Shown piece after piece: positions 6,550 to 21,807 of a stretch of DNA of 64,000 nucleotides (position 1 is the stretch's first letter; the number at the start of each line of letters is the position of its first letter). Source of the stretch: an uncultured Muribaculum sp. (lineage in GTDB: Bacteria; Bacteroidota; Bacteroidia; Bacteroidales; Muribaculaceae); contig CAZWWS010000001.1 in assembly GCA_964637445.1 (NCBI GenBank), positions 29,004 to 93,003 on the forward strand, given 5' to 3'. The notes under the pieces were generated by a model, which made no database searches, had not been told where the DNA came from, and saw nothing but the letters and a program-made list of their open reading frames with translations. The position numbers and the translations under genes were made by a program.

Positions 6550-8130
6550 ATGACACGTCCCATTTTATTATTGCTATTCCTAACGTATGGTGTTATAGCT
6601 ACTTACGGCATAACTATAAAGGAGCGAGATGTTAAAGAAGCCTTGGAACGCTTGGATAAGGAATTATCTCGCCGTCAGATGTATATAGATGAACGCCAAA
6701 GTCATATTGATTCGGTAAAAAAAATGTTTTTTAAGGCAAAGACCGGAGGAGATGAATGGTATCGATTGGCTATGGATTTAGGCGATAGTTATACCTCGTT
6801 TAATACGGACTCTGCGTTAATATATTATTACCAAGGCTATGAGGTGGCAAAGGTGGCAGGTGATTCGATGGAAATGAAGCGTTTTTGCCTGCAACATTCG
6901 GTGCTGTTGCCTCTGACCGGATTGGTTAATTATGCATTGGAGGAATATAATGAAGTAACTATGGGAGGAGTGCCTGATGAATTAAAAGAATTATATTATG
7001 ATTCGGGTCGTCAGATGTACTCGTATATATCATCATTTTATGTAAATACTCCGGATGTAAGCGCTTATTGGAAAAAAGAAGAACGAAAAGCTCAAGCGGA
7101 ATTAATAGTATTTCTTGATCCCGAAACCCCTAAATATAAACTAAATCAAGGAGAATATTATTATACAAATAAAGAATATTCCAAGGCGGAGGCTATTCTT
7201 GAAGAGTTGCTTGAGAGAATTCCAGAGAGTAGTAATATATATGCTCGTGCTTGCCATATGTTGTCGGATATAGCGAAAGTCCGAAAAAAAGATAATGAGT
7301 ATTTGTATTATTTGACGTTGTCAGCTATGGCTGACGTGAAATCGGCAACTCTTGAAGTGATGTCTCTTCAAGAGCTTGGTCGACAGATGTTTGAACAAGG
7401 TGAAACCGAACGAGCACATAAATACTTATCTATAGCATTGGATAATGCGGTGAAATGTCATGCTATGGCTCGAATGGTACAATCTTCAGAAGCTCTTCCG
7501 ATTATTGAAGGCGCCCACGCTCTCGATTTGAAAAGAAGAGACCGAACGATGCTTGTGTTTATTGGATTAATGGTGCTTCTGATTGTGCTTCTGATTGTGA
7601 TGCTTGTGTATTTGCGAAAAGAAATGCAACACATGAAAACCCTGCAGGGGCGCTTGGAGGGAGCTAATCACGTAAAGGAAGTGTATATTACACAATTTTT
7701 GAGTCTTTGTTCGATATATATGGATAAACTAAACCAATTTTGTAAGATTGCCAATCGAAAAATCAGTGCCGGCAAGGTTGAGGATTTGTATAAAATGACA
7801 AAGAGTGGTAAGTTTATCGAAGAGCAAAGTGCCGAGTTCTACAATGTATTCGACAATGCATTTCTTCATATCTATCCAACATTTGTCAAGGAAGTGAACG
7901 ATTTGTTACGCCCGGATGAACAAATAGAACTTCAACCGGACGAATTATTGAATACAGATTTACGCATTTTGGCATTTATGCGATTGGGCATTGAAGAAAG
8001 TCCGAGGATTGCACAATTGCTAAATTATTCGGTCTATACTATATATGCATACCGAAATAAATTAAGAAATAGAGCAATTGATCGCGAAAATTTTGAAAAA
8101 GATGTAATGAGGATAAGCTCTATATCTTAG
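6550..8130 (+). CDS. membrane-anchored TPR / helix-turn-helix regulator (DUF6377-like), paralog 1
   Basis: The 526-aa protein has a signal/anchor, a ~310-aa TPR-like region, one central TM (MLVFIGLMVLLIVLLIVMLVYL), a coiled coil and a C-terminal LuxR/HTH-like segment NTDLRILAFMRLGIEESPRIAQLLNYSVYTIYAYRNKLRNR. Its architecture is the same as 33656-35302. Confidence 0.7.
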   Translation: MTRPILLLLFLTYGVIATYGITIKERDVKEALERLDKELSRRQMYIDERQSHIDSVKKMFFKAKTGGDEWYRLAMDLGDSYTSFNTDSALIYYYQGYEVAKVAGDSMEMKRFCLQHSVLLPLTGLVNYALEEYNEVTMGGVPDELKELYYDSGRQMYSYISSFYVNTPDVSAYWKKEERKAQAELIVFLDPETPKYKLNQGEYYYTNKEYSKAEAILEELLERIPESSNIYARACHMLSDIAKVRKKDNEYLYYLTLSAMADVKSATLEVMSLQELGRQMFEQGETERAHKYLSIALDNAVKCHAMARMVQSSEALPIIEGAHALDLKRRDRTMLVFIGLMVLLIVLLIVMLVYLRKEMQHMKTLQGRLEGANHVKEVYITQFLSLCSIYMDKLNQFCKIANRKISAGKVEDLYKMTKSGKFIEEQSAEFYNVFDNAFLHIYPTFVKEVNDLLRPDEQIELQPDELLNTDLRILAFMRLGIEESPRIAQLLNYSVYTIYAYRNKLRNRAIDRENFEKDVMRISSIS

Positions 8131-18860: not shown

Positions 18861-18881
18861 GTTTCTCTTGGTTTTACTCTA

Positions 18882-18889
18882 CAAACATA
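18882..18889 (-). promoter_or_regulatory. -7 box TATGTTTG (minus strand), proximal sdaA promoter
   Basis: A TAnnTTTG match lies 22 nt upstream of the sdaA ATG, outside the IR-flanked segment. Confidence 0.4.
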
Positions 18890-18960
18890 GCTCAATTTCC
18901 CCAATTAGACAATAGGTTACAAACATTACATTGAAATTAATTTTGTGTTGATAAGTGTGC

Positions 18961-18979
18961 ATCTCTTAGTAAGAGATAT
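18961..18979. repeat. left arm of a perfect 19-bp inverted repeat
   Basis: ATCTCTTAGTAAGAGATAT. Its reverse complement ATATCTCTTACTAAGAGAT occurs at 19124-19142. Each arm is itself an 8-1-8 palindrome. Confidence 0.85.
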
Positions 18980-18991
18980 TTTTTTGTATTG

Positions 18992-18999
18992 CAAAATTA
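18992..18999 (-). promoter_or_regulatory. -7 box TAATTTTG (minus strand) inside the IR-flanked segment
   Basis: This is the only TAnnTTTG match I find on either strand between the two repeat arms. It points toward sdaA and away from the GT2 gene. Confidence 0.4.
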
Positions 19000-19123
19000 G
19001 CTAATTAATTGAAATTGAGACTATAGTTAAATAGATTTTTTATAAAAATGTTTAGCAAAAAATGATAAATGCCATACATTCATAAACATTAATGCGCTGA
19101 TAATCAGATAAAACGTCGTATAG

Positions 19124-19144
19124 ATATCTCTTACTAAGAGATAT
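19124..19144. repeat. right arm of the inverted repeat
   Basis: ATATCTCTTACTAAGAGATAT ends 17 nt before the GT2 ATG. Confidence 0.85.
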
Positions 19145-19161
19145 ACATAAAATTGGATTAA

Positions 19162-20100
19162 ATGAAAAAAGTAACAATTCTGATACCGGCTTATAATGAA
19201 GAGCAGTCAATACCGGCTCTTTATGAGGCGTTGCATAAATTGATGGACTCCAATTCTGCTTACGATTGGGAAATACTCTTTGTCAATGATGGCAGTCGCG
19301 ATGCTACGCTTGATGTAATCAAACGACTGCGAGTCAGCGATAAACGCATTAACTATGTGAATCTATCGCGCAATTTTGGCAAAGAGAATGCTATGCTTGC
19401 CGGATTTGATTATGCTAAGGGTGATTGTATGGTCATTATGGATGCTGATTTGCAGCATCCGCCAACAGTGATACCCGAAATGCTCCGCTATTGGGAAGAA
19501 GGGTATGAAGATGTATATGCACGTCGCAAAGAACGAGGCAAAGAATCTTTGTTGCGAAAAAAATTTACAATGGCGTATTACTCATTGCTACAGAAGTCTA
19601 CACGAATTGACATCTTGCAAAATGTAGGTGATTTTCGATTGCTTGATCGTCGATGCATCAATGCTATCTGCCAATTGCGTGAAACGCAGCGATATACCAA
19701 AGGATTATATTGTTGGATTGGTTATAAAAAGAAAGATGTTTTGTTTGAACAAGGAGATCGGACTCAAGGTGAATCGTCATTTAATTTCATGGGGTTGTTT
19801 AACCTTGCAATAGAGGGAATCACGAGTTTTACCACGGCTCCATTGCGTATGGCGACTTTCCTCGGCTTTTTAGTATCGATTATTGCATTTCTATACCTAT
19901 GTTTTATCGTAATCAAAACAATATTTATCGGTGAGTCGGTACAAGGGTATCCGACATTGATGGTTGTGATGCTATTTCTTGGCGGAGTACAACTAATCTC
20001 GCTCGGTATCATAGGGGAGTATGTAGGACGAATATTCAACGAGACCAAAAATCGTCCGGTTTATATAGCAGAATCATATAACGAAGAAAAAATAGTATGA
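19162..20100 (+). CDS. family 2 glycosyltransferase, polyprenyl-phosphate sugar synthase type (GtrB/ArnC-like)
   Basis: The 312-aa protein has ILIPAYNEE, VNDGSRD, MDADLQHPP and two C-terminal TM helices. Confidence 0.88.
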   Translation: MKKVTILIPAYNEEQSIPALYEALHKLMDSNSAYDWEILFVNDGSRDATLDVIKRLRVSDKRINYVNLSRNFGKENAMLAGFDYAKGDCMVIMDADLQHPPTVIPEMLRYWEEGYEDVYARRKERGKESLLRKKFTMAYYSLLQKSTRIDILQNVGDFRLLDRRCINAICQLRETQRYTKGLYCWIGYKKKDVLFEQGDRTQGESSFNFMGLFNLAIEGITSFTTAPLRMATFLGFLVSIIAFLYLCFIVIKTIFIGESVQGYPTLMVVMLFLGGVQLISLGIIGEYVGRIFNETKNRPVYIAESYNEEKIV

Positions 20101-21722
20101 ACACAAAGAATAAAATATCAAATATTTATATTACAAACAAAATCGAATGTATTTTTTTTGTTGTAATAGGTGTGCTGTTTTACGCTATTAATAGTTTGAG
20201 TGAAATAAGTTGGGATGATTACTATTATATGTTTATATGTGAAAATGAAAATTTTTTTGGAGACTATAATAGGGAATACGTGTATAATTTCTCGGATGTA
20301 ATAAAATCTCAAATTAATCATTGGAATTATGTTAATGGTCGATTTATTATTCATGTTATAGTACAAGTGTTTGTTTGCTTGTTTGGGCTTACCTCATTTC
20401 AGATCTGTAATTCGGTAATGTTTGTTGTGCTGATGAAATATTTATGTAAACTTTGTATTGGTGAGCATCAGAGAGGTGATGTCAGATATTATATACTACT
20501 CTTGACTATTATGTATGTGATGCTGGGATTTATGAATGTCGGTTTAGGCTATGTGACAAGTATTGCGTTTTCTGTTAATTACTTATGGCCATCAACATTG
20601 TTCGTGTGTTATATATATAATTACTACAAATATAAAGATATTGAAAAGAATGTTACGTTAATTAAGCGTATAGTGTTATTTCTATTCGCAATTTTAACAG
20701 GGGCAATGAACGAATCATTTTCAGTGGGTTTATCTGCGGCATTGTTTATATATTATCTGATTCATACCCACAGAACAAGGTTTAAGGGTATAGTCGCATT
20801 ATTGACGATTGGATTATGGATTGGAACTACCATATGCTGTGTAAATCCGGCTAATATTGGTCGTTTTATGGGAAGTAATGACTCTAATTTGATCCGAGAA
20901 TTGTCTTTACGTATACTATGGTTGGGTTCTAATATTGAGTTATTAGTGCCGATCTTTAGTGTAATTATATTAATTATAATAACCAATATACGAAACATGC
21001 AGTTGGTGAAAGAATTGAAAAATAAGTACATGGAATTAATAGTAGCGATTGTATGTACATTCTTATTTTTGGTGGCAATTGGTTTAAAAGGAAATATGCA
21101 AATGTTTATCAGTTGTACACTATTGAGTATAATCTTAACCTACAAATTCTTGGAAAGAATTCTTGATAATCGTTTGAAAAAAAATGTGATAAAAATATTA
21201 ACGATATGCTTATGTGTGCATTATATTGTAGTTCTTGGATATTCCTATCGGCAAAATAATGATTATAATTCAAACATAAAAGAATATTTGTCTACTTTTG
21301 GAGTTATTGAATATGATTTACCGCAAGCACCACCAATAATAAGTTCGTACGGATTATGTTTTTCTGATTCTCGGAAGGATTTTATTTATTCAGGTCTTGA
21401 ACTCGTGTATGGATATAAACCAAAGTTTATACCCAATCGAAGTATATTAGAAAATATTGAAAATGAAATTGCGTATGATGCTGGTTGGTGTTATGTAATA
21501 GCGACTCCTGCAAACGTAAAATATGATTTTATAGTTAAAAATTTCACTCATAAAAATTGGATGTTGAAATTATGGAGTAGAGTATCAGAGTCTGCTACAT
21601 CCCAATTTGTTTTGGAATCATATGAGGTTGCATACAATAATAGGAAGTATACTATTGCTCTAAAGAATAACAATGCGTTTGACTATCACAAAATTTCCAT
21701 TATTAAGAGAAAAGAAATTTGA
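20097..21722 (+). CDS. polytopic membrane protein, probable GtrC/ArnT-like glycan-modifying transferase
   Basis: The 541-aa protein has ~11-12 TM segments plus a ~150-aa C-terminal soluble domain. Its ATG overlaps the GT2 stop (ATGA). It is visibly more AT-rich than its neighbours. Confidence 0.55.
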   Translation: MNTKNKISNIYITNKIECIFFVVIGVLFYAINSLSEISWDDYYYMFICENENFFGDYNREYVYNFSDVIKSQINHWNYVNGRFIIHVIVQVFVCLFGLTSFQICNSVMFVVLMKYLCKLCIGEHQRGDVRYYILLLTIMYVMLGFMNVGLGYVTSIAFSVNYLWPSTLFVCYIYNYYKYKDIEKNVTLIKRIVLFLFAILTGAMNESFSVGLSAALFIYYLIHTHRTRFKGIVALLTIGLWIGTTICCVNPANIGRFMGSNDSNLIRELSLRILWLGSNIELLVPIFSVIILIIITNIRNMQLVKELKNKYMELIVAIVCTFLFLVAIGLKGNMQMFISCTLLSIILTYKFLERILDNRLKKNVIKILTICLCVHYIVVLGYSYRQNNDYNSNIKEYLSTFGVIEYDLPQAPPIISSYGLCFSDSRKDFIYSGLELVYGYKPKFIPNRSILENIENEIAYDAGWCYVIATPANVKYDFIVKNFTHKNWMLKLWSRVSESATSQFVLESYEVAYNNRKYTIALKNNNAFDYHKISIIKRKEI

Positions 21723-21748
21723 GAAATCAAAATGACAATCAAAATAGC

Positions 21749-21776
21749 AAAAGGTTGGCTGTGGCCGACCTTTTTT
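21749..21776 (+). terminator. intrinsic terminator
   Basis: AAGGTTGGC-tgtg-GCCGACCTT followed by TTTT. Confidence 0.6.
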
Positions 21777-21799
21777 GCTGTAATGTGGATGGAATTTAC

Positions 21800-21807
21800 T
21801 ATCTTTG
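21800..21807 (+). promoter_or_regulatory. -7 box TATCTTTG
   Basis: A TAnnTTTG match lies 26 nt upstream of the ATG at 21833. Confidence 0.4.

Follow-up and report, generated by a model that had tools for sequence, protein, structure and literature searches.

A 64,000-nucleotide stretch of DNA from an uncultured Muribaculum sp. (contig CAZWWS010000001.1, positions 29,004 to 93,003 of the forward strand; hereafter the window) carries a short inverted repeat between sdaA, which encodes L-serine dehydratase, and a two-gene operon encoding a GtrB-like GT2 glycosyltransferase and a DUF6056 membrane protein. We conclude, with a probability of roughly 0.9, that this feature is a site-specific DNA inversion switch (inverton) which controls the gtr-like operon and was captured in its OFF orientation. 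The system is of a known kind, the invertible promoter of Bacteroidales, and the window locus is an additional example of it. Direct observation provided the repeat, a promoter box at the position typical of its family, the segment in both orientations, membership in an inverton family and the families to which the switched genes belong; these lines of evidence are presented below, followed by the explanations that compete with inversion.

A promoter enclosed by inverted palindromic repeats

The right arm of the repeat (inverted repeat right, IRR) is the exact reverse complement of the left arm (inverted repeat left, IRL), giving a 19-nt perfect repeat (18961-18979 and 19124-19142) that encloses 144 nt. 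Direct reading of the sequence and a repeat finder agreed on this arrangement, which an initial annotation made from the letters of the window had reported, and the repeat finder lengthened the arm pair to 24 nt at 92% identity (18956-18979 / 19124-19147). Each arm contains a 17-nt palindromic core of the form ATCTCTTA-N-TAAGAGAT, with 0 mismatches in both. The same annotation had described each arm as an 8-1-8 palindrome; this holds for IRL, and IRR is in fact a 10-1-10 palindrome. When the arms were read as direct repeats, the single difference between them was the central base, G in IRL and its complement C in IRR. Such a palindromic site with an asymmetric central base fits a dimer-binding core site. 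The whole element is non-coding, and no further copy of the 17-nt core was present in the 64-kb window when up to three mismatches were allowed.

Promoters were sought with the Bacteroides -7 consensus TAnnTTTG on both strands. The sole match inside the segment is a minus-strand box at 18992-18999, which reads outward through IRL towards sdaA, and sdaA has a separate box of its own outside the element; on both points the consensus scan agreed with what had been annotated. Once the segment is inverted, the inner box occupies plus-strand positions 19104-19111 and precedes the GT2 ATG (19162) by 50 nt. This predicted ON layout is exactly the one found in real contigs (see below), and the inner box is kept in all strain variants. 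The initial annotation was mistaken in one respect, namely that no consensus box faces GT2 in the present orientation: a plus-strand box at 18938-18945 does so from just beyond the left arm. It is mutated among strains, to TAATTCTG in contig L091 and to TAAATTTTG in contig L103, and is therefore probably fortuitous. A sigma-70 promoter and terminator scanner was uninformative for this organism.

The segment occurs in both orientations in independent assemblies

Contigs of the same species were retrieved from Logan metagenome assemblies by exact-protein look-up of GT2 and of near-identical GT2 and sdaA variants, and were compared with an in-silico ON reference consisting of window positions 18861-19161 with the segment inverted. 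Two of them, L101 (DRR849063) and L102 (SRR15510125), span sdaA, the entire intergenic region and GT2; in both, the segment is reverse-complemented and its flanks are unchanged. Each matched the ON reference at 300/301 positions. When reverse-complemented, their interiors matched that of the window at 143/144 positions; aligned without reversal, they matched at 90/157. Contig L104 (SRR15510138) was identical to the ON version over its 272/272 positions and ends inside the right arm. A fourth contig, L001 (SRR14307630), opens with aatacaaaaaa, the reverse complement of 18980-18990, and continues into the right arm and GT2, which constitutes the ON right junction. The OFF state was seen in the window itself, in the 47-kb contig L091 (DRR848549), and in L092 and L103. 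Run SRR15510138 carries both states, since it yielded not only L104 in the ON state but also L089 with an OFF right junction. Orientation in related assemblies, to which the initial annotation had pointed as a means of checking its proposal, thus proved to vary: ON in L101, L102, L104 and L001, and OFF in the window, L091, L092, L103 and L089.

The ends of several contigs are informative as well. L002 and L090 both have 19124, where the right arm meets the segment, as their first base. L001 opens at the earliest 31-mer by which an ON right junction can be told apart from an OFF left junction read as its reverse complement. If, as we assume, the Logan assembler uses k=31, then by our reasoning the starts of these three contigs match the breaks of a de Bruijn graph in which both junctions are present. 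A scan of JGI metagenomes for a window-specific 31-mer gave 0 matches, and the species was met only in Logan and NCBI data; exact-protein look-up of the window sdaA and of protein P0005 returned no record.

The arm core defines an inverton family across Bacteroidales

An exact search for ATATCTCTTANTAAGAGAT in one genome per GTDB species returned 86 loci; we calculate that chance alone would give about 17 in 596 Gb. Cores were paired at 56/86 loci, leaving 48 unique pairs after removal of duplicates, and the paired loci were nearly all from Bacteroidales: Phocaeicola vulgatus, P. sartorii, P. faecalis, Bacteroides, Muribaculaceae, Prevotella and Paludibacteraceae. Unpaired matches fell mostly in genomes outside Bacteroidales, where they were taken to be chance, or at sites near contig ends.

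The arms of the 48 unique pairs lie 148-359 nt apart (median 188), compared with 165 nt in the window. Their central bases were complementary in 47/48 cases, as are the G and C of the window; complementary central bases are expected of true inverted repeats and not of repeated operators. Exactly one outward TAnnTTTG was located 7-15 nt from one arm in 46/48 pairs, with a mode of 13-14 nt, and the inner box of the window lies at 14 nt. Furthermore, 29/47 family elements have a motif resembling (A/T)TATCA(A/G) about 20-30 nt from the promoter-distal arm. The window has a near-palindromic CTGATAATCAG motif at the promoter-distal end of its segment, which may be bound by an accessory protein of the recombination complex.

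Orientation varies in the family too. An orthologous locus encoding DUF3575 was ON in L013, L056 and L073; in L058 it was OFF, its flanks having changed places and been reverse-complemented. In the reference assemblies, 35 elements were OFF and 12 ON relative to the nearest outward gene. The genes beside family elements are typical phase-variable cargo and include small AraC-like regulators (24 loci), DUF4988 lipoproteins, the DUF3575 outer-membrane protein, a UpxY/NusG-like factor, a SusC-like transporter and other lipoproteins. The window element is a member of this conserved Bacteroidales inverton family. Taken together, the segment in both orientations and the fit to the family support the proposal, already made by the initial annotation, that the locus is a phase-variable ON/OFF switch caught OFF.

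A tyrosine recombinase of 312 amino acids (Phage_int_SAM_5 and Phage_integrase domains) adjoins 9/56 paired loci, including that of P. vulgatus ATCC 8482 (L046). Five genomes contain one recombinase-linked element together with one or two orphan elements of the same core, a distribution that fits action in trans. By analogy with these family members, the recombinase that serves the window is most probably of the tyrosine type as well.

Several further features of the family were recorded. Its commonest neighbour is an AraC-type helix-turn-helix protein of 158-179 amino acids (L012, L014, L018, L024, L046, L047, L049 and others), the gene for which is often close to one for a DUF4988 lipoprotein of about 890 amino acids; the 179-residue version is found at the recombinase-linked locus in several genomes. 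At one orthologous AraC-type locus the two arms have the same central base, C/C or G/G (L014 5450/5639, L061 7219/7408 and L081 5450/5639), and the orthologues L018, L065 and L080 have G/C. The variant with identical central bases may represent a locked or deletion-prone switch. Two viral-class contigs of IMG/VR carry paired arms with G/C centres, L113 (79/264, spacing 185 nt) and L121 (5812/6001, spacing 189 nt), and the remaining ten viral matches are single sites. Finally, metagenome contigs and those of metagenome-assembled genomes (MAGs) often begin or end at an arm or within about 100 nt of one (L002, L090, L034, L055, L068, L078 and L010).

Weighing inversion against other explanations

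Six points limit the case for a promoter switch that inverts within the population and governs a glycan operon. First, orientation-dependent transcription is a prediction from the promoter consensus and from relatives in which the same genes have a fixed promoter. Second, the outer box at 18938-18945 could, from its position, drive some transcription independently of orientation. Third, no relative of the 312-residue recombinase was found in the 64-kb window by tblastn and by a profile search of six-frame open reading frames. The initial annotation had stated that the window has no recombinase, and this stands for the repeat-linked recombinase family, the sole family checked; because no family recombinase is present there, inversion at the locus would be catalysed in trans, by an enzyme encoded elsewhere in the genome, as at the orphan elements. 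Fourth, the two states in SRR15510138 could come from two co-resident strains and not from switching within a clone. Fifth, L089 starts 4 nt inside the segment, off the position given by the simple graph argument. Sixth, the predicted model of the DUF6056 protein is at most suggestive of a GT-C fold, with a weak best Foldseek E value of 0.2.

Among the alternatives, the one that fares best is that the switch works in both directions, the OFF state adding a second sdaA promoter and thereby trading serine catabolism against glycan modification. The OFF promoter reads out of IRL and points at sdaA, the ATG of which lies about 100 nt beyond the arm, so the switch may not be silent on that side. 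However, sdaA keeps its own consensus box (18882-18889) and in a sister species does without a switch. In addition, the module that contains the switch is an insertion, so its place beside sdaA looks accidental, and most family members have no gene that faces outward on their OFF side. We therefore regard a regulatory trade-off with sdaA as improbable.

Less probable again is a fixed polymorphism, in which one or more past inversions now mark lineages whose cells no longer switch. It would suit the facts that the evidence comes from assemblies and none of it from clonal read data, that all three contigs (L091, L092 and L103) of the strain variant whose distal half has diverged are OFF, and that the window is devoid of a family recombinase. 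What speaks for continued inversion is that ON and OFF alleles of the window type differ by 0-1 nt over 301 nt, which implies very recent flips, and that both junction states occur in SRR15510138 (L104 and L089). Moreover, three contigs break exactly at branch points defined by the arms, the arms are perfectly intact, and family members vary in orientation as well.

We consider it very unlikely that the arms are instead a pair of operators to which a dimeric transcription factor binds, perhaps with looping of the DNA, around a segment that does not invert. The arms are indeed near-perfect palindromes, 165 bp apart in a divergent promoter region, but the segment is inverted in four independent assemblies and the flanks of the ON contigs are identical to the window. 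Operators in direct repeat would share the central base that is complementary in 47/48 pairs, and the gene linked to the family is a tyrosine recombinase. An assembly artefact of the palindromic repeat deserves almost no credence: repeats and palindromes do confuse assemblers and several contigs end at the arms, but a k=31 graph cannot misjoin through the shared arm (19 nt perfect, 24 nt imperfect), because it is shorter than the presumed k and real reads must span the junctions, and the inverted structure came from three sequencing runs, twice at full length with both flanks.

The switched genes and their surroundings

The features of the locus are collected in Table 1.

Table 1. Coordinates of the switch, the genes around it and associated signals in the window
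Feature	Position	Strand	Description
Left arm (IRL)	18961-18979		reads ATCTCTTAGTAAGAGATAT; 17-nt palindromic core ATCTCTTA-G-TAAGAGAT at 18961-18977
Right arm (IRR)	19124-19142		core ATCTCTTA-C-TAAGAGAT at 19126-19142
Invertible segment	18980-19123		144 nt; OFF orientation relative to GT2
Inner -7 box	18992-18999	minus	TAATTTTG(C), also read as TAATTTTGC; 14 nt from nearest arm core
Outer box	18938-18945	plus	TAATTTTG; just beyond left arm, faces GT2
Near-palindromic motif	19097-19107		CTGATAATCAG; promoter-distal end of segment
sdaA -7 box	18882-18889	minus	own box of sdaA, outside element
sdaA	17652-18860	minus	L-serine dehydratase; divergent neighbour
GT2 glycosyltransferase	19162-20100	plus	GtrB-like; 312 aa; Pfam PF00535; first gene of operon
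DUF6056 membrane protein	20097-21722	plus	GtrC-like; 541 aa; start overlaps GT2 stop codon
Terminator-like hairpin	21744-21781	plus	with U-run; -20.9 kcal/mol, z -3.8; closes two-gene operon
lptFG box	21800-21807		own conserved box
Inserted module	~18865-21781		switch, GT2, DUF6056 and hairpin; 2.9 kb, relative to sister species

The GT2 protein matched the Synechocystis sll0501 structure PDB 5EKP, that of GtrB, with an E value of 2e-89 over residues 4-304, and ArnC was matched too. Its match to the NCBIfam family PgfS (7e-96) fell below the family cutoff. Two hydrophobic helices are located in its C-terminal part, at residues 225-243 and 263-281. The DUF6056 protein has about nine hydrophobic segments and matched Pfam PF19528, 'GT_STM0557_N', at 1e-40, a label taken from the Salmonella gtr-cluster gene STM0557. 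It had no match among PDB sequences, and its AlphaFold model (mean predicted local distance difference test score, pLDDT, 88.9) had STT3, AftA, DPY19 and EmbB as top PDB matches in Foldseek, all of them weak (E 0.2-0.9, template modelling (TM) scores 0.2-0.38). We infer that the most probable role of the gene pair is to charge undecaprenyl phosphate with a sugar, which is then passed on to a surface glycan at the outer face of the inner membrane.

The hairpin that closes the operon was not called by a simple terminator scanner. No gene for a GtrA-type flippase lies between the switch and this hairpin, the interval examined for GtrA, which holds two genes. Further downstream of the DUF6056 gene are lptF/G and ribBA. 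In the ON state, the right arm would form a 9-bp hairpin near the 5' end of the predicted messenger RNA leader (L101 1195-1260; window 19124-19144), with an energy of -10.3 kcal/mol and a z of -2.8. A 5' leader hairpin of this type is expected in every member of the ATCTCTTA-N-TAAGAGAT family.

The module is an insertion and its second gene varies between strains

In a sister species (L106-L111), whose sdaA is 91% identical, sdaA and lptFG are neighbours separated by 123 nt (L106 3378-3500), and GT2, DUF6056 and the switch are absent from this position. The alignment of L106 with the window picks up again at about 21782. Because the sister species is without the module at the sdaA-lptFG position, the stretch from ~18865 to 21781 is a 2.9-kb insertion. 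Other relatives carry GT2 with DUF6056 beside a transfer RNA gene (GT2 87-88% identical), or GT2 alone (78%); in each case these relatives without the switch (L093, L099 and L100) have an ordinary fixed TAnnTTTG promoter before the same genes. The 78%-identical GT2 (P0017) was considered as an orthologous switch and rejected, being a stand-alone gene with a fixed promoter.

Between strains of the species, one DUF6056 gene has taken the place of another. The allele of the window and the one in L091 (3936-5438, 500 aa) are 24.6% identical, and around them the two strains share an upstream GT2 that is 97% identical and downstream DNA that is 100% identical. Among database sequences, the window allele is closest to one with 58% identity. 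A separate locus in the Bacteroidales MAG RGIG9119 (L003) has a lone degenerate arm, AAATCTTACTAAGAAAT (7209-7225, plus strand of the locus), about 20 nt before the start codon of a GT2 gene whose product is 67% identical and which is accompanied by a DUF6056-like gene. There is no clear partner arm, and this single-arm locus may be a decayed switch.

Discussion

We propose that the switch would operate as follows. Two 17-bp palindromic recombinase sites, ATCTCTTA-N-TAAGAGAT, form an inverted pair and are symmetric except at the central base pair. They bracket a 144-bp segment with one promoter of the Bacteroides sigma-A type, the -7 box of which is TAATTTTGC and which is predicted to fire outward through the nearer arm. 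In the OFF state this promoter faces sdaA, away from the operon. A recombinase supplied from elsewhere in the genome would invert the segment and bring the promoter to a point 50 nt upstream of the GT2 ATG, so that in the ON state the GtrB-like/GtrC-like pair would be transcribed up to the terminator hairpin. The outcome would be a population that varies in one surface-sugar decoration.

Phase-variable surface sugars shape the encounters of gut Bacteroidales with phages, antibodies and neighbouring cells, and the locus adds a gtr-like decoration module to the cargo list of invertible promoters. The gtr-like cargo, its cassette nature and the sharply defined repeat family lend it a modest added interest. 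The 17-nt core in combination with the fixed promoter offset provides a signature that needs no reads and finds dozens of switches across Bacteroidales genomes. Since such switches commonly break metagenome contigs, they are easily lost from MAGs. The present case also illustrates that a true inverton, and the state it is in, can be recognised by a reader with nothing but the raw sequence.

A broader interpretation, which we put forward tentatively and hold to be rather doubtful, is that the family is an order-wide one not yet described by sequence, in which one tyrosine recombinase per genome, encoded beside the AraC-like gene, flips dispersed orphan promoters, and in which the central base pair decides between inversion and deletion. 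At the window locus such a promoter would have been acquired along with a mobile gtrB/gtrC-like cassette, in which the specificity gene is exchanged from one strain to another. If this is true, Bacteroidaceae gain a phase-variable glycan serotype conversion like that of Salmonella by a different mechanism.

Five Bacteroidota repeat motifs were reportedly published by Jiang et al. in 2019 with PhaseFinder. No paper was found that prints the arm core, either in full or as 13-mers, the PhaseFinder logos being outside this comparison, and no literature was found on GtrB together with Bacteroides and phase variation. The arm sequence is not present in the accessible part of the supplements of PMC11892184.

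The closest described architecture is that of the surface-layer (S-layer) invertons BT1927 of B. thetaiotaomicron and BF4087 of B. fragilis, which are served by the recombinases BT1928/BT1929 and Tsr26 (PMC4611039; bioRxiv 10.1101/521070). These share with the window a promoter placed between imperfect 17-nt palindromes that vary only at the centre, and they likewise involve tyrosine recombinases, several copies per genome and surface-structure products (PMC4611039; bioRxiv 10.1101/521070). Membership in the BT1927-type family was nevertheless rejected: the arms read ATCTCTTA-N-TAAGAGAT and depart from the consensus GTTAC-N7-GTAAC (PMC4611039). Both types of site can be parsed as 5 + 7 + 5, GTTAC-N7-GTAAC in BT1927 and ATCTC-TTANTAA-GAGAT in the window. 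The two systems differ in that the segment measures 144 nt in the window and 256-301 bp in BT1927/BF4087, in that the window element has no adjacent recombinase, and in their cargo, which is a glycosyltransferase pair in the former and an S-layer lipoprotein/OmpA cluster in the latter.

The Mpi system of B. fragilis has the repeat consensus ARACGTWCGT. Neither arm contains this decamer, and membership in the Mpi regulon was rejected. Mpi is a serine recombinase, whereas the ATCTCTTA-N-TAAGAGAT family is linked to a tyrosine recombinase; what the systems would have in common is one recombinase that acts in trans on many dispersed surface-glycan promoters (PMC12940148). Tyrosine recombinases that act on local and distant invertible promoters of Bacteroidaceae are known from IVp-I and IVp-II (BF2766/Tsr19) and from P. 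vulgatus BVU2677/BVU2684, which switch extracellular polysaccharide (EPS) and Mfa1 fimbriae (PMC4747536, PMC12940148). The repeat motif of the IVp-I/II type, TACTTNNNANGTAANNGAA, does not match the window arms. The fimS switch of E. coli (FimB/FimE) is similar in having a short promoter segment, tyrosine recombinases and an ON/OFF surface structure (bioRxiv 10.1101/2022.09.20.508701). It differs in its unrelated 9-bp repeats, in recombinases encoded beside the switch and in its promoter type.

With respect to the switched genes, the nearest counterparts are the gtrABC operons of Salmonella and Shigella phages and islands (including STM0557-0559), which also combine a GtrB-type bactoprenol-phosphate glycosyltransferase with a variable GtrC-type transferase. 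These O-antigen glucosylation operons are phase variable, as is predicted for the window module, and both are carried as an inserted cassette. Phase variation of Salmonella gtr is epigenetic and depends on Dam and OxyR; it does not involve DNA inversion, unlike the switch described here, and the window operon is without a gtrA-like flippase gene. In enterobacterial gtr clusters gtrB is conserved, and gtrC is variable and confers specificity. The exchange of the DUF6056 gene next to a conserved GT2 resembles this gtrB/gtrC pattern.

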